Positions 1-47,547 of a stretch of DNA of 64,000 bases are shown here, in pieces; the first letter of the stretch is position 1, and each line of letters begins with the position of its first letter. The stretch lies in the NCBI GenBank assembly GCA_000996895.1, contig LCBB01000003.1:3659-67658 (forward strand). The letters run 5' to 3'. A program made the position numbers and the translations under genes. Origin of the DNA: a candidate division WWE3 bacterium GW2011_GWC2_41_23 (GTDB taxonomy: Bacteria > Patescibacteriota > WWE3 > UBA101185 > UBA10185). The notes beneath the pieces were generated by a model. It worked only from the letters and a program-made list of their open reading frames with translations, searched no databases and was not told the DNA's origin.

Positions 1-184
1 TCTTTTCAAACTCATCGAAATTGGCGGCTATTCTGTGGGTTATGAAACCAAAAGTCTCGCCGTTTTTTACCAGTCTGTACGATTGAACGTAGGTGGCTGT
101 TATTGCCTGCTGGAGGGTGTGAAATACCCTAACATCCACGGCTTTTTGAACACCTTGAGCTTTCGGGCTTGGGTCCATATACAT
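1..184 (-). CDS. hypothetical protein, 3' part outside window (N-terminus MYMDPSPKAQGVQKAVDVRVFHTLQQ...)
   Basis: Reverse complement of 176-200 reads AAGGAGAGAA-ATG-TAT-ATG, with the SD AAGGAG at 189-194 (minus strand). The ORF runs off the window start. It is absent from the ORF track, which likely lists only complete ORFs. Confidence 0.4.
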   Translation of the reverse strand, partial: MYMDPSPKAQGVQKAVDVRVFHTLQQAITATYVQSYRLVKNGETFGFITHRIAANFDEFEK

Positions 185-237
185 TTCTCTCCTTTTCTAA
201 GATTTACGGGGATTTTAGCACAATTTAGGGGAAATAC

Positions 238-265
238 TAAATGGAGCCAAAGGTGGGGATCGAAC
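238..265. repeat. 28-bp direct repeat (taaatggagccaaaggtggggatcgaac) identical to the tRNA-Thr 3' end plus 4 nt; att-like distal copy
   Basis: Exact 28-nt match to 2163-2190, which covers the T-loop-to-CCA 3' portion of the minus-strand tRNA-Thr plus 4 flanking nt. Confidence 0.8.
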
Positions 266-276
266 GGGGGTTAGAT

Positions 277-795
277 TTAATCCGGTACTTTCATATTTTC
301 AAATTGCTCGTTTGCCCATTTTATGTGTTCTTCCAAGCTTTGGGAAAGGCCGAAATCAGCCCTGATTTTATTCACATTCTTTGGATTTTGAAGGGGAAGT
401 GGTTCGGATACGCTCTTACCATCCATGTTCTTGTGAATCTGCATAATTTCACCGAAGCGCTGTTTTTTTCCGCTACGTACGAGAGCATTATCAATTAATA
501 TGGCAACTTTTTCTCTGTCAGATGTACATTTTAGTATTTCGTCGGATTCGCAAATGCTTTCGATGAATTTTAGGTCTCTTGAGTGGCAGGATAGTGTTAT
601 GAACCGGTTAACACCCGATTCACCTAATTTACAAACAAAATCTGTCCCGAGAGTGCCGATTAAAAACTTCAGAATGTTTGTGGTAATGGTATCTGTAATT
701 TTGACAGGTAACACACCGTATTTTCCTTGGTATCTGACTTTTTGATCTACTTTAAATAGTATTGAAAGGAAGAAATTAACTATTTTGATTTTCAT
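277..795 (-). CDS. hypothetical protein (172 aa) inside the tRNA-Thr-associated island, downstream of the ATP-grasp gene
   Basis: Complete ORF with ATG start. It follows a terminator-like hairpin after the ATP-grasp gene. No recognisable motifs and a weak SD. Confidence 0.35.
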   Translation of the reverse strand: MKIKIVNFFLSILFKVDQKVRYQGKYGVLPVKITDTITTNILKFLIGTLGTDFVCKLGESGVNRFITLSCHSRDLKFIESICESDEILKCTSDREKVAILIDNALVRSGKKQRFGEIMQIHKNMDGKSVSEPLPLQNPKNVNKIRADFGLSQSLEEHIKWANEQFENMKVPD

Positions 796-817
796 ATAAG
801 TTTATTTAAAAAAGGCC

Positions 818-850
818 TGCAGGTGGTGCAAATTTCATGCATTGTGCAGG
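818..850 (-). terminator. rho-independent terminator-like hairpin after the ATP-grasp gene
   Basis: ggcctgcag...ctgcaggcc 8-9 bp stem, followed on the minus strand by TTTTTTT (ggcctttttttaaat). Confidence 0.5.
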
Positions 851-858
851 CCTTGCTG

Positions 859-1788
859 TTAATTCAGAAGCTTAGCAATCTCTTGGGCTATAGGGTGTCT
901 GCCTCCATTTTGAACAAAAATCCACGAACCTGTCGGATTGTTCTCTAGGAAGTAGTATATACCGTCTGTGCCTAAGATAAAATCCATTGCGCTAAACTTC
1001 AACCCGAAGTTTCGGACAAATGCGACACACCTGCTTTCTAGTTCTGCTGGAAGTTCTATGCGGCTATAGATTAGTTCGCCTTTTCTCCCATCTCTATAGT
1101 CCACGTCGTTTGTTTTCCGACCGACTTGTGTAATGGAGATGGAAAACACTCTATCGCCAACCACGATTGTTCTAATGTCAAACACCCTTTCTATTTCCTC
1201 CTGAAATATTGCCGGGGAAATAGGTAGCAGGCTGAAATCAACGGGGTCCTCCAGACCTATCCTGTTGGTAAAGATTGCCAAGAGTTTTCCCTCGCTGTTT
1301 ATAAGCATCTGTTTAGCTACGGGTTTAACTACAATTTTACCAACATCTGATCTGAACCTAATTGCCTCTTCGGGGCTGCTGGTTACTAGGGTTCTGGGTA
1401 TGGTCATGCCTAAACACTTGGCGGTTTCAAGCTGTAGCTGTTTGTTATCCGCGCGTTTTATGCGGTAAGGGTTTGACACCCACCGGGCTTTTTCCAGGAG
1501 TCCGTACAACTGGAAAACCATTTCTTCTCTGCACGCCCTGTTAAGCATCTCGTACGATCCGGCTTTTTCTTTTGTGTAAAAAAGGTTGGCGATGCGAAAC
1601 CATACGGAGGTAACGCTGTCAAGATCGAGGTTGTCCAAAGAGTGTCTGAATTTGTTTCCATTCCACTCATAGGACAGTTTTGGGAAGGGTATGTCATCAA
1701 TGTTCAGGCGTACAATTGGTTTGTCAATGTACTTTGTGACTTCCTGGAGCGTACGGTCGTTTGTGAGAGTGATTACTAACAGGCACAC
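859..1788 (-). CDS. ATP-grasp ligase, RimK/MdnC-MvdD-like (candidate graspetide/ribosomal peptide maturase)
   Basis: N-terminal 'CLLVITLTNDRTLQEV...RLNIDDIPFP' and C-terminal 'DVDYRDGRK...ELPAELESRCVAFVRNFGLKFSAMDFIL..DGIYYFLENNPTGSWIF' match the ATP-grasp peptide-ligase pattern (xENNPxGxW). Proposed start is GTG at 1788, preceded by AAGGAG 9 nt upstream. The track's TTG start at 1857 would overlap the upstream terminator hairpin. Confidence 0.7.
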   Translation of the reverse strand: MCLLVITLTNDRTLQEVTKYIDKPIVRLNIDDIPFPKLSYEWNGNKFRHSLDNLDLDSVTSVWFRIANLFYTKEKAGSYEMLNRACREEMVFQLYGLLEKARWVSNPYRIKRADNKQLQLETAKCLGMTIPRTLVTSSPEEAIRFRSDVGKIVVKPVAKQMLINSEGKLLAIFTNRIGLEDPVDFSLLPISPAIFQEEIERVFDIRTIVVGDRVFSISITQVGRKTNDVDYRDGRKGELIYSRIELPAELESRCVAFVRNFGLKFSAMDFILGTDGIYYFLENNPTGSWIFVQNGGRHPIAQEIAKLLN

Positions 1789-1814
1789 GGCATTACTCTC
1801 CTTGTCGGACGTAC

Positions 1815-1855
1815 AAAAAAAGATGGGGAAGGTCTGTGGTGGTAAGCACTTCCCC
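1815..1855 (-). terminator. intrinsic terminator/attenuator between precursor peptide gene and ATP-grasp gene
   Basis: Minus strand: GGGGAAG-(17 nt loop)-CTTCCCC followed by ATCTTTTTTT. It lies between the precursor stop (1869) and the ligase SD (about 1799-1804). Confidence 0.6.
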
Positions 1856-1868
1856 AAGGTAGCGACGC

Positions 1869-1988
1869 TCAGCAGGATTCGTAGTCGGTCTGTGTCCCGC
1901 TGGTATCGGCGTCATAAGTACACTTGCCATCGCATGTGGACTCGTCCGTTCTTTCAAGAACAACAACAAATTGCTCGTAGAAAGACAT
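1869..1988 (-). CDS. candidate graspetide (microviridin-like) RiPP precursor peptide, 39 aa: MSFYEQFVVVLERTDESTCDGKCTYDADTSGTQTDYESC
   Basis: Hand translation of the minus strand. ATG at 1986-1988 with the SD AAGGAGG 6 nt upstream; TGA stop at 1869-1871. The N-terminal aromatic helix-like segment (FYEQFVVV) resembles the PFFARFL-type leader motif. The C-terminal core is rich in Thr/Ser, Asp/Glu and Lys plus 3 Cys. The gene sits immediately upstream of the ATP-grasp ligase on the same strand. Confidence 0.65.
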   Translation of the reverse strand: MSFYEQFVVVLERTDESTCDGKCTYDADTSGTQTDYESC

Positions 1989-2034
1989 TGTAACCTCCTT
2001 TCTTATATATTCGATATGTACCAATTCTGAGTGT

Positions 2035-2062
2035 ATTGTATCCCAAGCTTTTGTCCTGTCAA
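2035..2062 (-). promoter_or_regulatory. sigma70-like promoter for the precursor peptide gene (-35 TTGACA, 16-nt spacer, -10 TACAAT)
   Basis: Minus strand TTGACAggacaaaagcttgggaTACAAT, located about 45 nt upstream of the precursor ATG. Confidence 0.55.
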
Positions 2063-2162
2063 ATGTTGTGGTGGCAAGGTTTTCTCCTAATGAGGTTGCT
2101 GACCTTGGGGGTAGCCTTCGCTGTAGTGGAATCCGCGCACAGGCTTGTGTAATTTGAGTTTT

Positions 2163-2190
2163 TAAATGGAGCCAAAGGTGGGGATCGAAC
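2163..2190. repeat. proximal copy of the 28-bp direct repeat (within the tRNA-Thr 3' end)
   Basis: Identical to 238-265. Confidence 0.8.
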
Positions 2191-2241
2191 CCACAACCTG
2201 CTGTTTACAAAACAGCTGCTCTACCATTGAGCTACTTTGGC
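2167..2241 (-). tRNA. tRNA-Thr (anticodon UGU), CCA encoded
   Basis: Reverse complement is GCCAAAGTAGCTCAATGGTAGAGCAGCTGTTTTGTAAACAGCAGGTTGTGGGTTCGATCCCCACCTTTGGCTCCA. It has a 7-bp acceptor stem, a GCTC/GAGC D-stem, a GCTGT/ACAGC anticodon stem with loop TTTGTAA, and a GTGGG/CCCAC T-stem with TTCGATC loop. Confidence 0.9.
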
Positions 2242-2366
2242 GAGTGTAACGAGCCAATGAGCGATGAAGTCGCACCTTTGGCGAGGCGAAGCGGGCCAAA
2301 GACTAATGACTTTGGCGAGTGTAACGAGCCAATGAGCGATGAAGTCGCACCTTTGGCGAGGCGAGG
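2235..2366. repeat. tandem duplication (2 x 55 bp, 76-bp period) of the tRNA-Thr 5' leader plus first 7-8 nt; upstream copy carries a minimal acceptor-stem hairpin
   Basis: ctttggcgagtgtaacgagccaatgagcgatgaagtcgcacctttggcgaggcga occurs at 2235-2289 and 2311-2365. On the minus strand the upstream unit ends GCCAAAG-tcattagt-CTTTGGC. Confidence 0.75.
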
Positions 2367-2524
2367 ATAGCATAAACCAATAGATTTTAGCACGAAATTT
2401 TTTGCAATAGAAAGAGTTGTTGTCCGCGTATGCGGAGCGATCCTGTTTACGTAATCTTTATATTTGTTGTAGAATCGGGTAAATACTTTTTTCTATTCAT
2501 GTAAGTCCAAAAGGAGAGCGCTAA

Positions 2525-2743
2525 ATGAATACGAAAGATGGTGACCCACTTAGGAAGAGTGCTGTTAATTATAATACCGGTGTTTCTAATACCGGTAATA
2601 ATTGGGGCGTTTCTACACCGATGCTATGGCATGAATCTTCAAGCATCAGCATTGCGGTCGACCACTGCTTGGGTTGTCAATGCCTGGATTCAGCCTGTCT
2701 TCACTGCCGCCACAAGCAGAACAGAAACCATAACGGACACTGA
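2525..2743 (+). CDS. small Cys-rich protein (72 aa; C-terminal HCLGCQCLDSACLHCRH), unknown function
   Basis: SD AAGGAG 6 nt upstream of the ATG. A strong hairpin plus T-run terminator follows at 2803-2856. An overlapping alternative frame (2538..2765) encodes a hydrophobic 75-aa peptide, so frame assignment is uncertain. Confidence 0.4.
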   Translation: MNTKDGDPLRKSAVNYNTGVSNTGNNWGVSTPMLWHESSSISIAVDHCLGCQCLDSACLHCRHKQNRNHNGH

Positions 2744-2802
2744 CCTTAATCAGAAAAGGAGCTAACCATTCAGGTACCTGAAAAGTATTTGCCTTATTAA
2801 AG

Positions 2803-2856
2803 CCGGAGGAACTGTGAAAATTTTTTATAAATTCACAACCTCCGGCGTAGTTTTTC
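2803..2856 (+). terminator. rho-independent terminator
   Basis: ccggaggaactgtgaa...ttcacaacctccgg stem (about 14 bp) followed by cgtagTTTTTcc. Confidence 0.6.
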
Positions 2857-2924
2857 CGTCAAAAAACCCTATATTTCTCAATCGTTGACACAGCAACGGC
2901 ATGTATGGTTTAATTCACTACGTT

Positions 2925-3173
2925 ATGTCAAGAATATGCGACTTTTGCGGTAAAACTTATCAGCAAGGAAACTTGGTCCCGAGAGGGGTCGGTAACCGTG
3001 TTACCAGAAGAACCACTAACAAGAGAAAAGCTAATTTAAGAAGTAAAAGGCTTGAGATTAACGGCCGAATGGTCAGAGTCACTATCTGTGCCTCCTGTCT
3101 GAAAAGACTTAAAAAAGACATTAAAGAGGCAAATTTGGCTTTAGTACAGGCGCAAGCACAGGTAGCCGCCTAA
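2925..3173 (+). CDS. rpmB: 50S ribosomal protein L28
   Basis: MSRICDFCGK...GN...NLRSKRLEINGRMVRVTICASCLK matches the L28 family pattern including the paired Cys motifs. Start taken at the internal Met of track ORF 2901..3173. Confidence 0.8.
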   Translation: MSRICDFCGKTYQQGNLVPRGVGNRVTRRTTNKRKANLRSKRLEINGRMVRVTICASCLKRLKKDIKEANLALVQAQAQVAA

Positions 3174-4737: not shown

Positions 4738-4836
4738 ATGAAACTTGTAATTGTTGAGTCGCCTACAAAAGCAAAGACGCTGTCCAAGATTTTACCTCAG
4801 TCTTACAGCATAAAGTGGTTTAGGTGTGGATGTTGA
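4738..4836 (+). other. topA: topA N-terminal fragment (MKLVIVESPTKAKTLSKIL...) in a different frame from the main topA ORF
   Basis: ATG at 4738 encodes the canonical topoisomerase I TOPRIM start, ending at TGA 4834-4836 in frame 1. The rest of topA is in frame 2. Confidence 0.6.
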
Positions 4837-6868
4837 AAAAGATTTTACCCTCACATACGAAGTCCCTTCCAAAGCAAAAAAAGTTTTGACAGATTTGAAA
4901 AAAACTGCGAAAGAGGCGGAGGAAATTGTTTTAGCAACTGATCCTGATAGGGAAGGGGAGGCGATTGCATGGCACCTGGAGGAGCTGTTGCGCGGAAAAA
5001 AAGACACAAGAGTTTTTTCACGCGTTGTTTTTCACGAACTAACTAAAGAAGCAATTAACGAAGCGTTTAAAAATCCCGGAAAAATAGATTTGGATTTGGT
5101 CGACGCCCAACAAGCACGCAGGGTGCTGGACAGATTAGTGGGCTACAAACTGTCCCCATTACTTTGGAAGAAAGTTATGTACGGGCTGTCGGCAGGCCGC
5201 GTTCAGAGCGTTGCTGTGCGGTTAGTTGTTGAACGTGAAAGGGAGCGGCAGGCATTTAACCCCGAGGAATACTGGGGGGTTTTGGGGGAATTTCAAAACG
5301 GCAGCAAAAAAAAGATTCGGGCCGAGCTTTCGGAGATAAACGGCAAGAAAGTTGAGATAAAAAACGGAGGACAGGCGGAAGAAATTAAAGCCGGGGCGTT
5401 AAAAGGAACTTATTCAGTCATCTCATTAAAAAAATCAGAGCGAAAAAAGAACCCATATCCCCCTTTCAAGACATCCACTCTCCAACAGGCAATGGCCAAT
5501 ATATATGGGTTTAACGCCAAAAAAACGATGCGGGCAGCACAGGGGTTGTTTGAGAAGGGGTACATCACCTACCACAGAACGGACTCACTGAGCCTTTCCC
5601 CGCACTTTATCAATACGGCGCGCGAACTGATAAAAAAACGCTTCGGAGAGACCTATTTGCCTGCTACCCCTAACCTATATAAGACAAAGTCAGCTAATGC
5701 TCAGGAGGCACACGAAGCAATTCGTCCTACTTCGGCACATGCAGTGCCATCAAAAAGTATAGGGTTGTCAGGAGATGAGTTTAAAACATACTCGATAATT
5801 TGGTTAAGGAGTTTAGAATGCCAGATGAATCCCTCCATATATGAACAGACATCTTTATCTATAGGTTCGGATGAGGGGTATATTTTTAAGGCTTCGGGAT
5901 CCACAGTGTTGTTCGAGGGGTGGTTGGCCGTCTCAAAAATGGTCGGAGTAAAAGAGGACGAAGAGGAAACCTCTAGTATTCTTCCGGAATTAGTCGAAGG
6001 AACCAAAATGAAGCTTCTGGAGATAAAAAATGAACAACATTTTACCCAACCTCCGGCGAGATACAACGACGCTTCTTTGATAAAAAAGATGGAGGAAATG
6101 GGAGTCGGACGACCTTCGACTTACGCGCCCACACTTTCCACCATTCAGGACCGCAAATATGTGTTACGTGACGGTAGATATTTTTACCCCAACGATGTTG
6201 CTTATGTGGTCGTTGACCTTTTAGTAGAGCACTTTCCGGAAATTGTCGATTATAACTTTACAGCCCTGATGGAGGAGAGTTTGGATAAGGTTGCGGAAGG
6301 AAAAGTACAGTGGGTTCCGGTAATACGCGAATTTTATAAACCTTTCGAAAAGAAAATACTCGCGAAAGACAAAGAACTAAATAAAAGGGATGTGACAAAT
6401 CTGGGTGACAGTGAAGAAAAATGTCCGGAATGCGGCCGTGTTCTGGTTTTTAAACTAGGCAAATTCGGCAAGTTTTTAAGCTGCTCGGGATACCCGGATT
6501 GCAAGTACGCCAAGCCTTTAGAACCACTAAACGGTGTCGGCGGGGAAGATGAAGATTTTGGAAAATGCGATAAATGCGAAGATGGAATAATGGTTTTGAA
6601 GCAGGGAAGATTCGGAAAGTTTTTAGCCTGCAGCAATTATCCGAAATGCAAGAATACTAAGCCGTTTTTGGATAAAATAGGAATGAAATGCCCGCAATGC
6701 GGGGAAGGCGAGGTAGTAAAGAAAAAGTCTAAGTGGAAAGAGTTTTACGGATGCAGCAGATACCCCGATTGCGACTGGAAGAGTTGGAAGAATCCGATGG
6801 TTGTGGCAAGTGGGAATGGGGAAGATAGCGAGAAAGAGAGTGGCGATTCAATTGACAGTTTAGTTTAA
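4826..6868 (+). CDS. topA: DNA topoisomerase I (main body; three C-terminal C4 zinc ribbons)
   Basis: DPDREGEAIAWHL, YITYHRTDS, and 3x CxxC...CxxC ribbons. The apparent 5' frameshift and small deletion are described under findings. Confidence 0.85.
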   Translation: MDVEKDFTLTYEVPSKAKKVLTDLKKTAKEAEEIVLATDPDREGEAIAWHLEELLRGKKDTRVFSRVVFHELTKEAINEAFKNPGKIDLDLVDAQQARRVLDRLVGYKLSPLLWKKVMYGLSAGRVQSVAVRLVVERERERQAFNPEEYWGVLGEFQNGSKKKIRAELSEINGKKVEIKNGGQAEEIKAGALKGTYSVISLKKSERKKNPYPPFKTSTLQQAMANIYGFNAKKTMRAAQGLFEKGYITYHRTDSLSLSPHFINTARELIKKRFGETYLPATPNLYKTKSANAQEAHEAIRPTSAHAVPSKSIGLSGDEFKTYSIIWLRSLECQMNPSIYEQTSLSIGSDEGYIFKASGSTVLFEGWLAVSKMVGVKEDEEETSSILPELVEGTKMKLLEIKNEQHFTQPPARYNDASLIKKMEEMGVGRPSTYAPTLSTIQDRKYVLRDGRYFYPNDVAYVVVDLLVEHFPEIVDYNFTALMEESLDKVAEGKVQWVPVIREFYKPFEKKILAKDKELNKRDVTNLGDSEEKCPECGRVLVFKLGKFGKFLSCSGYPDCKYAKPLEPLNGVGGEDEDFGKCDKCEDGIMVLKQGRFGKFLACSNYPKCKNTKPFLDKIGMKCPQCGEGEVVKKKSKWKEFYGCSRYPDCDWKSWKNPMVVASGNGEDSEKESGDSIDSLV

Positions 6869-7861: not shown

Positions 7862-8416
7862 ATGAAGAAATTTTTGATAGTATCTCTAGCGTTGTTTTTT
7901 ACTGTGGCAATCTTTCTGTTTGTTGGTTGGTTTCTTCTACAAAAATACCCCGGACTGACAAGAAAAGACGCCGGTAAATTTGATAATGCTTCAAGCGGGA
8001 GTACTTTTTCTAAATTTATTGCAGAACAGCCTTACGTATTTGATATCGACGTTGGTTCCTACCCCGGGGATAAAATACTTAACATTGGGGCAGAAGAGTT
8101 CTATGAAATTCAAAGTTCTAGAGAAACTTCTGCACTTCTTGATAAAACATACAAGTTTTATTTAGTGGCTGCGATTGAAGATAGAAATAACGGATTAGTG
8201 ACTCTTTATGAAGAAGGCACAGATTCGAAGAGGCGTGTCTTTAAATGTTCGGGCGACAGGGTTTTTGCAATGAAGAATAGGAATTTTTCCTTCATTTCTT
8301 CAGGATTTGATTTTATGGAGACATTGAGTGTAGGTGACCGTGTTTATACCAAGTGTTTAAATAGTGACTGTACAACGCTGGGTCCGGATTGTATTATTGT
8401 AAAGGAGATAGAGTAA
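7862..8416 (+). CDS. hypothetical membrane-anchored protein
   Basis: N-terminal TM helix; no recognisable domain. Confidence 0.5.
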   Translation: MKKFLIVSLALFFTVAIFLFVGWFLLQKYPGLTRKDAGKFDNASSGSTFSKFIAEQPYVFDIDVGSYPGDKILNIGAEEFYEIQSSRETSALLDKTYKFYLVAAIEDRNNGLVTLYEEGTDSKRRVFKCSGDRVFAMKNRNFSFISSGFDFMETLSVGDRVYTKCLNSDCTTLGPDCIIVKEIE

Positions 8417-8427
8417 CGGGTGTTTTT

Positions 8428-11169
8428 ATGAAAGTATATTTAAAATTACTACTTTTTTATGTTGTCTTCACGATACCATTTGCTGGGGGGTTTCCCGCTG
8501 TTTCAGCTGCTACGTGCAGTTCAACCGAATGTTCGGGAGTTAAAGTTGAGAACGGTCTTACTTACTATGAATATGCGTGTGCTGGAAACACATATTGTTG
8601 CTACGCTGAGGGGTGCCCTAGCTGGGATTGCGTTGCTAGAGGTTGTTGCTGGTACTCAACAAGCGACGGCGCCGGTATGTGTAACACGAGAGCTACTTCC
8701 GGTTGTCCCGGATCATATTATGGTATATCGTGTACCATCAATGCTGCGGATGAATGCAGACCGTGCGGGGGTACTACCGGTGGCGGTGGCACAACATACG
8801 GTAAAATCATCGGCCGCATATGGAATGATGTAGATAAAAATGGCACGTATGGCGGCGTATCGGAACTATGGTCCAATACCGCTACAACGTGTTCTACATA
8901 CAAAAACGATTCTTTCAATATCCAGGAAGCGGGAACCAATAGGTTAGCTAGCTGGGCCTGCAATACCGAATGGGGTGTTCAGGCAGCATACTACACCTCG
9001 TCTGATATAGTTATCGGCTCAAAAACAATCACCCTAACAGGACTTCCTTCCGGTTATGCGTGCGGTAGCTGGTCATTTTCCAAGACCGGCGACACCAGCA
9101 CCACTGATGGCACAGGATGTGTCACAACAGCAGTTCCGATTATTGAGGGGACGAACAACCATCTATGGTGGAGAATTGTGAAAACTAATATCGCCCCTAC
9201 GCTTAGTATTGTGCCCTCCAGCGTTTCTTACTCAGGATACGCTTTGCATCCGCTTAAGATCGTTGCGGCAGATGGGGAGCCGTACGGCAGTTTAAAAATA
9301 TCTACGTCACTATCACCACCCAACAACGGGTGGCTTCCTGAGGTTCCGGCGATAAGTTTCCGTGCTTACGGTTCGACCGGCGACGGTATTTGGCCAATTG
9401 CCAAGATTTATGGTTGGAACAAGAGTACGGGCAGCCGCGTCGAGCTTAAAACTTTTAATATCAATACCGCAACTCCCACTGACTACTGGTTTGACGTTCC
9501 TTCTCCCGGTTTATACTCTTTTTTTGATTTGGAATTTACAAATGACTACAACGGGGGTGTGGGAAAGGACGTAAATCTTTACGTTGATAATCTTACCTAC
9601 ATTGCGGATAACATGTTTTATCAGACCCTTTACAAATTTGAAGCCGAGGATGCAAATCTTGTCCAGTACGATCGGTACCATCCTGACGACGGATACGGGC
9701 TGGTAAGCCCAAGTACAGCTACATCATCCGTGCCCGGCGCAACGTATGCGGTGATGGCCTGGAACGGCGCATTAAGATTTCCTGTTGTCTGGCAGTCTCC
9801 CACAACGGCGATAAACGGAAAGATTAATTTCACTGTTACGGATGATATCGGTGCTTCACTTTCCAAGTCGGTTCCAACAACGCCTATCACAGGTACTGTT
9901 ACCGGAAAGGTTTGGATAACTGCAAATCCTGCAGTATGTACGGCCTCTCATACGCCAGTTCTAACTACAGGTATAGTTACGGCAACTGCAGGCGGCACAA
10001 ATCTATCGGCACCTTTAAATTCTTTCGGTCAATACACTGTAGCCGGTTTGTTTGGCAGCATAAGCCAGTTGTGTCTTAGCGGACTGCCGGCAACCCCCGC
10101 ATACCGAATTGCGTGTAGAAACGGAGTACCCGTTTCTGCCACAACGGGTTCGTGCGACTATATCTCTCCTTCACTTTCCGGAACCGGTACCACAACAATT
10201 GATATCGGCATCCGTCCTATAACGGCAAAGGGTTGGCTGGCCGCTATGGGAAGCGATCTTTACGCAAAGGATGTTGTAGAAAGTCTTCCGCCTTACACGG
10301 GATGTCCGTTTTTGGGTAACTACTATGGTATGTGTCCGACATTCACGGAGACGCATCCTACAAGGATACCGGATCACTACGTGCTTAACTACAATCCTTG
10401 GGTAGCAACTCCCGCGTCCTCAACCGTATTTACGGAAGATGATGTGGTATCTCTTGGTCCTTCTTTGGACGAGCTGTCGGAGTCAGGGGTTTCTGCGACC
10501 CGGGTCGGTTCAAAGTTTAGAGAGAAAAACAAACAGTATTTTTCCTCTTTTCATAGTCTGATCGACACACTAAAAAATGCTCCTACCGGTACTTACAGTG
10601 CCACATCCAGTTTAAGTAACCGAACTTTTACAAAAAATTCAATAACAATCTGGAATGCCGGTACGTCGACCATTCCTGCTCCGGCCATCGGAAACTATAG
10701 TTATACCGTTTCGGACGGTTTGGCCTTTTTAGTCATTCCAAGAAACGGTCCTTCCACTAACGCGATTAACATAAACAAAATCACAACCTCAGGTGCGGGG
10801 CGTCTCGTGATTCTTGCCGATAGGGACATAAATATCGGCAGTTCTGCTGTAGGATCTTCCAACAACCTTAAAAACGATACCGCGGATATTCAGGCATCCA
10901 TTATTACAACGGGTAACGTCACCGTAAACAACTATCTGTCAGCGTCATCTTCCGCAGGGACCGTTATCATAGAGGGCCCTCTTATTATCGGGGGAGGAAC
11001 GGGAATGACGATAAACAGATCCCTTGGAACAGACAATGAATTTAGGCCTGCGGTCTTTGTCAGATTCAACCCGCTTTATATTACAAAACTAAACGATTTA
11101 GCTATGAAAAATACAATTCCTGCCCTAAATCCGCTTTTTACATTTGATTTTACAAGTGAGACGGAATAG
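8428..11169 (+). CDS. large secreted Cys-/Gly-/Thr-rich surface protein (about 913 aa), possible pilus-associated adhesin
   Basis: Signal peptide MKVYLKLLLFYVVFTIPFAGGFPAVSAA. Cys-rich N-terminal module, and a C-terminal Gly/Ser/Thr-rich region (beta-helix-like; structural interpretation is speculative). Sits directly upstream of a PilX-like gene. Confidence 0.6.
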   Translation: MKVYLKLLLFYVVFTIPFAGGFPAVSAATCSSTECSGVKVENGLTYYEYACAGNTYCCYAEGCPSWDCVARGCCWYSTSDGAGMCNTRATSGCPGSYYGISCTINAADECRPCGGTTGGGGTTYGKIIGRIWNDVDKNGTYGGVSELWSNTATTCSTYKNDSFNIQEAGTNRLASWACNTEWGVQAAYYTSSDIVIGSKTITLTGLPSGYACGSWSFSKTGDTSTTDGTGCVTTAVPIIEGTNNHLWWRIVKTNIAPTLSIVPSSVSYSGYALHPLKIVAADGEPYGSLKISTSLSPPNNGWLPEVPAISFRAYGSTGDGIWPIAKIYGWNKSTGSRVELKTFNINTATPTDYWFDVPSPGLYSFFDLEFTNDYNGGVGKDVNLYVDNLTYIADNMFYQTLYKFEAEDANLVQYDRYHPDDGYGLVSPSTATSSVPGATYAVMAWNGALRFPVVWQSPTTAINGKINFTVTDDIGASLSKSVPTTPITGTVTGKVWITANPAVCTASHTPVLTTGIVTATAGGTNLSAPLNSFGQYTVAGLFGSISQLCLSGLPATPAYRIACRNGVPVSATTGSCDYISPSLSGTGTTTIDIGIRPITAKGWLAAMGSDLYAKDVVESLPPYTGCPFLGNYYGMCPTFTETHPTRIPDHYVLNYNPWVATPASSTVFTEDDVVSLGPSLDELSESGVSATRVGSKFREKNKQYFSSFHSLIDTLKNAPTGTYSATSSLSNRTFTKNSITIWNAGTSTIPAPAIGNYSYTVSDGLAFLVIPRNGPSTNAININKITTSGAGRLVILADRDINIGSSAVGSSNNLKNDTADIQASIITTGNVTVNNYLSASSSAGTVIIEGPLIIGGGTGMTINRSLGTDNEFRPAVFVRFNPLYITKLNDLAMKNTIPALNPLFTFDFTSETE

Positions 11170-11179
11170 GCAAGTTACT

Positions 11180-12103
11180 ATGAGCGGACAAAAAACTTAC
11201 TCAAAAACCAATATTTTAAAAAACAACGAAGGGCAGGCTCTGCTTTTTGTGGTAGTAGCCCTAACTATCTCAACGGTTATTGGAGTTTCGGTAGCAACGC
11301 GTACGCTTTCCGTGACAAAAAGGGTAGCCCAAACGGATACCCAGACAAAAGTTTACTACGCGGCAGAAGCGGGGATTGAGAGATTTGTTAATCTTTCCAC
11401 CCCCGATCTTAAAGCTTTGGCAGCGGTGGGGGGTAACACGGCCGATAACTGCGCAAAGGCTAAAGCTGTTACTGCACCTAATAATTTTTGCTCGTTTACT
11501 CTTGGGAGTACTACCACGGTTGAAACCTCAACCCTTGTTAAAGTTCAGGAGATAACCTACAACGAAACCAGTCCCTCGCCGCACTACTCGGTAAAATCCA
11601 AAAACGGAATCTTTTCCTCAGTGTCGCTTTCCGGATACACCGGAAACCAGGTGACTATATGCTGGAAAGACAAGGCAGTCGAGCACACAGCCGTTTATTA
11701 CACATTATGGGGTCCTACTAATTTTATTAGCAAGGCAGTGATAAATCCTACTTCCATCGCCGGCGGCGATCCACTTTCATTTACCACTACCAATGCCCTT
11801 GATGCGGTAACTTCAGGAAACAGTATCTACAGCTCATGCCACACTGTTCTTACCCCCATTGCCTCCAACCCCTACTTTTTAAATGTCATGCCTCTGGGGG
11901 GAGACGCCACAATCGGAATCTTTCCCGGAACACAGCCCATACCTCCGCAGGGGTTTCTCATAACATCAAAAGCTTCCCTTAACACCACAAGTACACTTCA
12001 GCAGCAGGTGGTCAAAGTCATAGAAGCAACCCGCACATACAATCACGTACCCGGATTCTACGATGCCGCCCTATATGTTCAGGACGATATCATTGCGCCC
12101 TAG
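11180..12103 (+). CDS. PilX N-terminal domain-like pilus assembly/minor pilin-like protein
   Basis: EGQALLFVVVALTISTVIGVSVATRTLSVTKRVAQTDTQTKVYYAAEAGIE resembles the PilX_N pattern (G.ALI..L.LL.VLT..GVS...AAEAG.E). Confidence 0.5.
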   Translation: MSGQKTYSKTNILKNNEGQALLFVVVALTISTVIGVSVATRTLSVTKRVAQTDTQTKVYYAAEAGIERFVNLSTPDLKALAAVGGNTADNCAKAKAVTAPNNFCSFTLGSTTTVETSTLVKVQEITYNETSPSPHYSVKSKNGIFSSVSLSGYTGNQVTICWKDKAVEHTAVYYTLWGPTNFISKAVINPTSIAGGDPLSFTTTNALDAVTSGNSIYSSCHTVLTPIASNPYFLNVMPLGGDATIGIFPGTQPIPPQGFLITSKASLNTTSTLQQQVVKVIEATRTYNHVPGFYDAALYVQDDIIAP

Positions 12104-12284
12104 CTTATATTGTGCTAACTTATCAATTGCCTATATCTCCCTCCCGAAAGGGCATAGGTGAGGAGCTGCGCAAAGGCAGCGCCAAAAGTAAAAGGGAACC
12201 CGCTATTAAACTCTACGCAGTTACTGTGCGGTTTCCCAACAAATATAAATTTAAATAAGAAAGTCGTACTTAACAGAAGATACT

Positions 12285-46506: not shown

Positions 46507-47547
46507 ATGACTAAAGTATCGTTAGACTCAAATCTCTCCGACGTGATAACCCAGTACCTCGAGTATTGTGAGATAGAAAAGAACCTCTCGCAGAACACTC
46601 TCAAAATGTATCATTTTTATTTAACGGATTTTTTAGAATGGCTGGGTGCGTTTTTAAAAATAGACAAAATCACCCTGGCGGAAATTACCGACGACAATAT
46701 TAAAAAATACAGACTTGATCTTAACCGCAGAATAAGTAGAAAATCCAACATGGAATTTAAACGTTCCACCCAAAAGACTTTTTTGGTTGCAATAAGGGCT
46801 TTATTGAAGTATTTGGTGGTTGAAACGGAGGTTGAGATTATGTCTCCGGAACAGATAATACTTGGAAAATCGGACGACCGTGTGCCCAAAGTCCTTAACG
46901 AAGAGCAGATGAAAAGGCTATTTGACGGCCAGGACCTGAGCAAAAGGTCCGGAATAAGGGACCGAGCCATTTTAGAAACTTTGTACAGTACGGGGCTTCG
47001 TGTTAGCGAACTCACCAAGTTAAACAGAGACGACGTTAATCTTATTTCCGGAGAGTTTACCGTTATAGGTAAGGGACGCAAAGCAAGAACTGTCTATTTA
47101 TCCCCCGCAGCAAAAGACTGGATAAAAAGGTACCTGGGGATTCGGGGGGATTCTTTTAAACCTTTATTTCTAAGATATTCAGGTAAGCACATGGAGTCGG
47201 ATGATTTTGACGGCGAGTCGTTGAGGCTTACAGTGCGCAGCGTTGAAAGAATGATTAAGAAATATGTTACGAACTCCGGCATTTCCGTTGATGCTACGCC
47301 CCATACTCTCAGGCACACTTACGCCACAGGGCTGCTTCAGGAGGGGGCGGATTTAAGAAGCGTTCAGGAATTGTTAGGCCACTCTAATGTTTCTACGACA
47401 CAGATTTACACCCACATCACGAACAGGCAGCTTAAAAACATTCATAAGCTTTATCACAAGGATATTGACGGTAAGCCGGCTTCTTACGCAAAAGACAACG
47501 AAGAAGATGTTAGTGACGACGACGCAGGAATAACTTCTTTAAGCTAA
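46507..47547 (+). CDS. tyrosine site-specific recombinase (XerC/XerD-like integrase family)
   Basis: RAILETLYSTGLRVSEL, HTLRHTYAT, LLGHSNVSTTQIYTHI with catalytic R-H-R-Y. Carries a C-terminal acidic extension. Confidence 0.85.
   Translation: MTKVSLDSNLSDVITQYLEYCEIEKNLSQNTLKMYHFYLTDFLEWLGAFLKIDKITLAEITDDNIKKYRLDLNRRISRKSNMEFKRSTQKTFLVAIRALLKYLVVETEVEIMSPEQIILGKSDDRVPKVLNEEQMKRLFDGQDLSKRSGIRDRAILETLYSTGLRVSELTKLNRDDVNLISGEFTVIGKGRKARTVYLSPAAKDWIKRYLGIRGDSFKPLFLRYSGKHMESDDFDGESLRLTVRSVERMIKKYVTNSGISVDATPHTLRHTYATGLLQEGADLRSVQELLGHSNVSTTQIYTHITNRQLKNIHKLYHKDIDGKPASYAKDNEEDVSDDDAGITSLS

Follow-up and report, generated by a model that had tools for sequence, protein, structure and literature searches.

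How did a small set of graspetide genes, i. e. genes for a peptide made on ribosomes and modified after translation (RiPP), come to lie directly behind a tRNA gene, with the 3' end of this very tRNA gene repeated at the far side and no integrase in between? This question is raised by the left end of a stretch of 64,000 nt (the window in the following) on contig LCBB01000003.1 of the candidate division WWE3 bacterium GW2011_GWC2_41_23, a member of the candidate phyla radiation (CPR), whose proteins have exact matches in groundwater WWE3 genomes such as GCA_001773275.1 and GCA_003449415.1. The genes lie within positions 238-2190 and are bounded by two copies of a 28-bp sequence derived from tRNA-Thr(UGU). 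Comparison with related genomes identifies this interval as a real, fossilised tRNA-bounded islet. The overall account that we prefer, with a probability of roughly 60%, is that of a horizontally exchanged islet that arose by Campbell-type insertion and subsequently underwent reciprocal decay of its repeats. The argument starts from the following features.

238-265, minus strand: distal 28-bp repeat, the remnant of a second tRNA-Thr(UGU) (the last 24 nt with CCA, followed by TTTA) and an exact duplicate of 2163-2190.
2163-2190, minus strand: proximal 28-bp repeat (tRNA 3' end followed by TTTA), the other member of the exact duplicate.
2167-2241, minus strand: intact tRNA-Thr(UGU), the copy retained in the window lineage (ARAGORN; Rfam tRNA model, 75.2 bits).
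200-237, minus strand: original chromosomal flank outside the islet, homologous to the sequence directly after tRNA-Thr in empty-site genomes.

The 28-mer TAAATGGAGCCAAAGGTGGGGATCGAAC is present in exactly two copies in the window, at 238-265 and 2163-2190, with no further copy even if up to three mismatches are allowed. On the tRNA strand it reads GTTCGATCCCCACCTTTGGCTCCA followed by TTTA and corresponds to tRNA positions 52-75 plus 4 nt; the 24 tRNA nucleotides comprise G53, the T loop, the 3' strands of the T stem and the acceptor stem, the discriminator U and the encoded CCA. The islet begins 5 nt past the CCA of the intact tRNA, and an Rfam scan of positions 1-3000 returned nothing besides this tRNA. 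Between the copies lie 1,897 bp (266-2162) with only three genes, all on the minus strand, i. e. a precursor gene, a gene encoding an ATP-grasp ligase and a gene of the DUF6624 family with 172 codons. An earlier note on this DNA, made from the letters alone, had described the two exact copies, had read the second as the T loop to the CCA of tRNA-Thr(UGU) plus 4 nt and had listed the same gene content; all of this is confirmed, the tRNA assignment by both ARAGORN and Rfam.

A repeat that arose by chance or from faulty assembly can be dismissed with near certainty. The chance expectation for the 28-mer is zero matches (100 shuffles), and two other species carry homologous longer repeats. Both copies occur at a spacing of 1,925 bp in every independent assembly of the window species that spans the region, and the repeat is therefore not a product of assembly; altogether, more than 20 contigs, which stem from independent samples and assemblers, show the identical structure. 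The islet is fixed in the window species, as 23 of 23 contigs with identical fmt carry it together with both 28-bp copies 1,925 bp apart, and no empty allele was found among them.

To look beyond this species, one genome per species was scanned with the neighbouring fmt protein, which gave four close WWE3 species and one more distant. The loci compared are those of RIFOXYD1_FULL_43_17 (L014), RIFOXYB1_FULL_43_24 (L016), RIFOXYC2_FULL_42_13 (L015) and the complete genome RAAC2_WWE3_1 (L017, RAAC2 in the following). An 'empty' tRNA-Thr site in relatives, which the earlier note had proposed to look for, does exist, and it is precise in both L014 and L016: tRNA-Thr and TTTA run straight into GTGCTAAAATCCCC, the sequence that follows the distal copy in the window and that is conserved in five of five species (alignment columns 2140-2180). 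L015 harbors the same three genes in the same place, and its distal repeat, which comprises tRNA positions 8-75 (68 nt, one mismatch) and TTTAA, comes after a spacer of 85 nt. RAAC2 seems empty at first look, yet the cassette remains present upstream of its single tRNA-Thr. A 39-nt tRNA-Thr fragment (anticodon stem to T arm, slightly mutated) is fused to what is left of the ATP-grasp gene, its last 47 codons; then come the DUF6624 gene in intact form, the same spacer, leader sequence of one and a half units, an intact tRNA and the normal flank. Most of the first tRNA, the precursor gene and five-sixths of the ATP-grasp gene have been lost. The distal unit of RAAC2 is identical to the leader and tRNA upstream of the cassette (L015/L016) at 130 of 133 nt (~98%), and this 133-nt repeat comprises the whole tRNA and at least 58 nt of its 5' leader. 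Two further features of the window become relevant here.

266-276, minus strand: 11-nt spacer remnant ATCTAACCCCC, with the deletion junction at its end; in RAAC2 (L017, L044, L045), these 11 nt come after the stop codon of the DUF6624 gene.
2234-2383, minus strand: tRNA leader, two 75-nt tandem units with acceptor-stem-like hairpins (GCCAAAG-N8-CTTTGGC at 2295-2316).

In RAAC2, the 11 nt ATCTAACCCCC continue into ~170 nt spacer, leader and tRNA. This continuation is missing in the window, where ATCTAACCCCC is followed by a jump to GTTCGATCC. The distal 28-bp copy aligns with the 3' end of both the 68-nt partial tRNA of L015 and the complete tRNA of RAAC2, and these alignments identify it as what is left of a second tRNA-Thr(UGU) gene that was once complete and had a leader of its own. 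Hence, the original suggestion that the 28 bp are an attachment site (att) core preserved as such is not borne out; they are rather the part of this second gene that a deletion of ~120-170 bp spared. As each of the three haplotypes is missing a different part, their comparison leads to an ancestral structure with two tRNAs, the simplest version of which is tRNA(1), cassette, spacer, leader and tRNA(2), the direct repeats being 133 nt long or longer. The three species then appear as three decay states: the window kept tRNA(1) and 28 bp of tRNA(2), L015 kept tRNA(1) and a 68-nt tRNA(2), and RAAC2 kept tRNA(2). The layout of a Campbell-type product, i. e. two complete direct copies each consisting of leader unit(s), tRNA and TTTA(A), is found in this reconstruction from the three haplotypes. 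When metagenomes were scanned with the conserved DUF6624 3' end, seven further contigs were returned, all of the L015 or the RAAC2 type. In a side comparison, the spacer before the distal tRNA displayed marginal homology to the native tRNA promoter (z ~4-5, ~65-73% identity over 30-46 nt), which is suggestive only.

The leader forms a tandem array directly upstream of tRNA-Thr(UGU), in which every unit contains the tRNA's own acceptor-stem strands as a hairpin, followed by ~11 nt. Such arrays are present in the window, in L015 (11778-11865), in L016 (11793-11882) and in L042, L046 and L047; they have no Rfam match. The unit measures 33 nt in some species and 75 nt in the window, and its copy number of one to four varies among species and even among strains of one species. 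In appearance, the units resemble tRNA copies with internal deletions or else a structured leader. The distal tRNA of RAAC2 has homologous leader units, and a leader unit of the same kind belonged to the ancestral long repeat.

How the cassette came to be shared by the three species can be judged from its divergence. Between them, the cassette genes differ by synonymous divergences (dS) of 0.22-0.29, with third-position identities of 0.84-0.87 and ratios of nonsynonymous to synonymous divergence (dN/dS) of 0.09-0.22. For the flanking topA, def, fmt, L28 and p407 (a gene of 407 codons), the dS estimates, which are saturated and imprecise, range from 0.47 to >3 at third-position identities of 0.47-0.80, and even the closest species pair (L014-L016) has flank dS values of 0.6-0.9. 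In 250-bp segments of the alignment, the islet is 87-97% identical between species, compared with 46-67% for the adjoining non-tRNA flanks and 76-85% for fmt and def, and the block of high identity starts and stops at the tRNA copies. A tree of topA, def and fmt that includes the window strain groups the window species with the two empty-site species (99% bootstrap) and places L015 and RAAC2 outside. Because of the low dS and high identity of the cassette relative to its flanks, together with a flank tree that is incongruent with the distribution of the cassette, horizontal exchange is the favored explanation: these data indicate that the cassette unit was probably passed among WWE3 species after their divergence, with crossovers in or near the tRNA copies.

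A purely vertical history would instead invoke an ancestral tandem duplication of the tRNA-Thr unit, a single cassette insertion between the copies and differential loss without any horizontal movement, L014 and L016 having become empty by recombination between the tRNA copies and the others having suffered partial deletions. This scenario is attractive in some respects. The locus is prone to tandem duplication, the leader being a variable-number tandem repeat of tRNA acceptor-stem sequence; the reciprocal decay of two tRNA copies is usual for duplicate genes; and recombination across a 133-nt repeat would give a clean empty site. We nevertheless regard it as quite improbable. Vertical descent does not account for an islet that has diverged so much less than the genes on either side (dS 0.5 to >3, and 0.6-0.9 in the closest pair) and that lies as a block of 87-97% identity inside flanks of 46-67% identity, nor for the well-supported grouping of the window species with the empty-site species. 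Moreover, both tRNA copies carry the same CCA-TTTA(A) trailer, which would not be expected from unequal crossing-over within the leader repeat.

The surroundings of the islet have a complicated history of their own. Locus L001, which stems from another strain of the window species (ERZ27254726) and extends past the left end of the window, contains a topA segment (L001 3890-5140) that is 100% identical to RAAC2_WWE3_1 and only ~90% identical to the window strain (window 4812-6837); its def and fmt are identical to those of the window strain. This segment is a very recent inter-species recombination tract. A tree that paired the window species with RAAC2 had been built on L001 and thus on the RAAC2-like recombinant topA of this strain; it was discarded and redone with the window strain. 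The right flank, i. e. the 407-aa gene, is closest to RIFOXYC2_FULL_42_13, and the region as a whole is a recombination mosaic.

As to the mechanism that placed the cassette between two tRNA units, homologous recombination of the host (RecA-type) is favored as the catalyst and fits the data at least as well as site-specific integration. A circle composed of the cassette and one tRNA-Thr unit would cross over once with the resident tRNA-Thr, and this single crossover, a Campbell-type insertion, would yield the cassette between two full tRNA units. Recombination between the two units could excise the same circle again, until the decay of one repeat would lock the cassette in; the islet of the window species, being fixed, would accordingly no longer be mobile. 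Integrases usually leave an identity block that reaches from the crossover within the tRNA (anticodon or T loop) to the tRNA 3' end. Homologous recombination is favored because the repeat at this locus, unlike such blocks, extends over all of the tRNA and at least 58 nt of leader, because no recombinase lies in or adjoining any haplotype and because the searches turned up neither a sister element with an integrase nor any viral contig, phage or plasmid that carries the core or the cargo.

The searches behind the latter two points were as follows. Pfam and NCBIfam scans detected no recombinase or integrase in the islet and the neighboring open reading frames (ORFs), and tblastn with a Xer-type recombinase gave no match in loci L001 and L014-L017. 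The sole tyrosine recombinase in the window is encoded by a XerC/D-type gene at 46507-47547, 44 kb from the islet. The 24-nt tRNA core had zero matches among IMG/VR viral contigs, viral scans for relatives of the ATP-grasp and DUF6624 proteins returned none, and the islet had no blastn match in collections of phages and plasmids. An integrase-bearing element at the same site was not encountered in five WWE3 genomes, the metagenome contigs and the viral scans, all of which were limited searches. The earlier note was thus right that the interval lacks an integrase, and this holds in and beside the cassette for any haplotype; the other islands flanked by the same core, for which it had suggested to look, were not found.

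The site-specific alternative assumes that a tyrosine (or serine) integrase, lost or encoded elsewhere, put a circular element into tRNA-Thr, so that the repeats would be attL and attR of a remnant resembling the cis-mobilizable elements (CIMEs) discussed below. Several observations point in this direction: the insertion sits at the 3' end of a tRNA gene, its direct repeats derive from that tRNA, relatives possess a precise empty site, and a XerC/D-type recombinase gene is present in the window. In a more distant WWE3 genome, a 20-nt duplication of a tRNA-Tyr 3' end bounds 143 bp, which means that scars of this type are found more than once in this tRNA cluster. With their 7-bp arms and 8-nt spacer, the leader hairpins are furthermore laid out like recombinase core sites, and the left edge of the long repeat falls within one hairpin loop. 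Still, integration of this kind would have to be reconciled with three haplotypes that have no integrase in or next to the islet in any assembly, with an identity block that is not confined to the part 3' of a crossover, with viral contigs, phages and plasmids devoid of the core and the cargo, and with the lack of any other island with this core. We therefore consider it an unlikely, albeit serious, contender. A related but far more speculative idea, which we would rate as very improbable, takes the hairpin array itself as a set of recombination sites, at which a host Xer-type or other hairpin-recognizing recombinase captures integrase-less cassettes beside CPR tRNA genes, similar to integrative mobile elements exploiting Xer (IMEX) or to integrons. 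Each array unit would then be the scar of an earlier event, and the crossover would be marked by the left edge of the long repeat, which lies in a hairpin loop.

Two proposals of the earlier note therefore stand in part. Of the tRNA-bounded integration, the discrete insertion at the tRNA-Thr 3' end holds, as documented by the empty sites of L014 and L016, and the site-specific mechanism is unproven. Its 'decayed or trans-mobilised cargo islet' is indeed decayed, lacks an integrase and has most likely moved horizontally; trans-mobilisation is likewise unproven, with no cognate integrase or carrier found.

Several points weigh against our preferred account of horizontal exchange and Campbell-type insertion. 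The crossover is an inferred step, given that neither a circular form, nor a haplotype with both tRNAs intact, nor a donor element was recovered; in particular, none of the seven metagenome contigs has both tRNA-Thr copies intact. A tyrosine recombinase could have acted in trans, and the leader hairpins, which are perfect inverted repeats, could be its sites. The flank dS values against which the cassette is measured are imprecise, as stated above, and recombination among WWE3 lineages is frequent, so that ordinary homologous replacement could have contributed to the low divergence of the islet. Finally, in eight other contexts of the cassette family (L009/10, L011/12, L013, L049, L050, L051/52, L053 and L054), no tRNA-derived or significant flanking repeats surround the cassette.

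It is instructive to compare the islet with known systems. Like the islands and prophages that tyrosine integrases insert into tRNA genes, it lies directly 3' of a tRNA, has tRNA-derived direct repeats with an intact tRNA at one end and a precise empty site in relatives, carries accessory cargo and bears evidence of horizontal spread. Sublocation rules for integration into tRNA genes were reportedly set out by Williams in 2002. In contrast to these islands, the islet is only 1.9-2.1 kb long and misses two defining features, i. e. an integrase of its own and a repeat restricted to the 3' part of the tRNA: its ancestral repeat, at least 133 nt long, took in a complete tRNA gene together with the leader and not just the stretch between a crossover and the 3' end, and RAAC2 keeps the distal copy as its working tRNA. 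CIMEs are integrase-less, att-flanked elements that are mobilised in trans by a related integrative and conjugative element (ICE) or prophage and that have been described in streptococci. The islet resembles them in its att-like flanking repeats and in carrying cargo only, without recombination genes; it differs in that no cognate integrase-bearing element was found in the related genomes and the metagenome and viral contigs examined, and in that there is no sign of present-day mobilisation. Campbell-type insertion-duplication, finally, is known from suicide plasmids or circles excised between direct repeats. It shares with the islet the order homology copy, insert, homology copy, a repeat as long as the homologous segment carried, no need for a dedicated recombinase and reversibility until one repeat decays. 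The islet differs in being a natural case with an essential tRNA gene as the homology, for which the circle and the event are deduced.

Taken together, the comparison provides evidence that a small RiPP (graspetide) cassette moved between species of an uncultured small-genome CPR lineage, in which mobile elements and natural-product genes are both sparsely described. The route would have required no element-encoded integrase, and the haplotype series illustrates how an insert becomes fixed when the duplicated essential tRNA gene around it decays reciprocally. For annotation, it follows that a short repeat of a tRNA 3' end is not necessarily the att core of an integrase. Current views are not overturned and no new principle emerges, as there are known examples of islands linked to tRNAs, of remnants without an integrase and of graspetide clusters in CPR bacteria.

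The cargo itself comprises the following features.

1869-1988, minus strand: 39-aa graspetide precursor MSFYEQFVVVLERTDESTCDGKCTYDADTSGTQTDYESC, conserved in homologous loci.
859-1788, minus strand: ATP-grasp RiPP maturase (graspetide synthetase) of 309 aa with a GTG start, predicted by NCBIfam.
277-795, minus strand: divergent DUF6624 protein of 172 aa, third gene of the cassette (Pfam DUF6624, E value 9e-5, below threshold).
806-854, minus strand: hairpin resembling an intrinsic terminator (10-bp stem) with a U tract, 3' of the ATP-grasp gene, predicted from fold energy.
2035-2062, minus strand: promoter-like site TTGACA-16-TACAAT before the precursor gene (11 of 12 consensus positions matched; consensus match only).

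On this basis, the interval 266-2162 presents itself as a self-contained graspetide cassette with a predicted promoter of its own, precursor, ligase, DUF6624 gene and terminator. Six loci, which represent five distinct cassettes or contexts, have the 39-aa ORF upstream of the homologous ligase, with the shared pattern SF[YF]EQF..V...[ST]C.G.CT[YW]D...TD[YH]ES[CT]. It thus agrees with what is expected of a graspetide precursor next to its ligase, namely a conserved leader and a core rich in Thr/Ser/Lys plus Asp/Glu. The ATP-grasp protein aligns end to end with TIGR04187 (1e-53), MvdC (6e-49) and MvdD (2e-44), with bit scores below the curated NCBIfam cut-offs, and is by sequence a predicted divergent member of the MvdC/MvdD/TIGR04187 type of RiPP maturases; its gene has a dN/dS of 0.09 relative to L015. 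The DUF6624 gene (dN/dS 0.12-0.22) adjoins the ATP-grasp gene in every homologous locus, always after the ligase, and the DUF6624 scores of its cassette homologues go down to 6e-17. The DUF6624 protein had no match in a sequence search of the PDB. The terminator-like hairpin has a fold energy of -20.7 kcal/mol (z -3.95), which none of 200 shuffles reached.

As far as can be predicted, the cargo belongs to an already known kind of gene cluster, with a graspetide product that is uncharacterised. CPR graspetide clusters with a conserved partner protein of unknown role have been described (Makarova et al. 2022, PMC8939145); according to Carter et al. (2026, PMC13097080), several groups of graspetides are accompanied by DUF6624. 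The cassette agrees with these clusters in its combination of a precursor, an MvdC/MvdD-like ATP-grasp ligase and an uncharacterised partner (DUF6624) in a CPR host. The difference lies in the tRNA linkage and mobility, which are undiscussed in these two papers (the words 'tRNA' and 'mobile' are absent from the text of PMC8939145), and in the host group WWE3, which is unmentioned.

Relatives of the cassette with ligase identities of 45-64% occupy at least eight unrelated positions in other CPR-like contigs. L013 alone lies between tRNA genes, which are two different tRNA-Met genes; its apparent flanking repeat was rejected as not significant, as 86 of 500 shuffles score as well. The tRNA duplication hence belongs to this WWE3 locus and not to the cassette family. 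L011 contains a 99-nt intergenic repeat (81% identity), with one copy at 7992-8090 between the ATP-grasp and DUF6624 genes and the other at 9565-9663, 1.5 kb downstream, which may be a small dispersed repeat element. In L051 (3255-3899), a truncated ATP-grasp gene (214 aa) abuts prfA next to an intact DUF6624 gene; as in RAAC2, DUF6624 has outlived the ligase.

The tRNA cluster around the islet holds further insertions. Past the left end of the window, L001 contains, in order, two paralogous small ORFs (99 and 111 aa), tRNA-Tyr, the 407-aa ORF, tRNA-Thr(GGU), a 224-aa ORF with a helix-turn-helix (HTH) and tRNA-Trp. The locus is thus a common Thr-Tyr-Thr-Trp tRNA cluster loosened by inserted ORFs. 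A second scar from the duplication of a tRNA 3' end in the same cluster is seen in L018, a WWE3-like genome at greater distance (70% identity in fmt). Here, the final 20 nt of tRNA-Tyr recur without mismatch 163 bp downstream (11948-11967 and 12111-12130), and the two copies enclose 143 bp that contain no ORF, just before tRNA-Thr(GGU).

The small paralogous ORFs lie between the islet and tRNA-Tyr (window 1-178, minus strand; L001 10618-11356) and have no family match. The 99-aa ORF starts at 178 on the minus strand, with its 5' part within the window at 1-178. Relatives possess one or two copies, and the interval reaches no more than 46-67% identity between species; the genes are a hypervariable pair in a tRNA spacer. 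The 224-aa ORF (L001 13113-13853) has an N-terminal HTH with weak matches to transposase and resolvase HTH domains and fills the 741 bp between tRNA-Thr(GGU) and tRNA-Trp in the window species only, compared with a gap of 10 bp in L014, L015 and L017. Its stop codon overlaps the 5' end of tRNA-Trp and no flanking repeat was seen; the gene may be a free-standing selfish gene. On the other side of the islet, a Cys-rich ORF of 72 aa (window 2525-2743, plus strand), called by some gene callers only, lies between L28 and the tRNA leader. It has a highly diverged 78-aa counterpart in RAAC2, with which it shares the motifs MN.K.GDP and D.CLGC.

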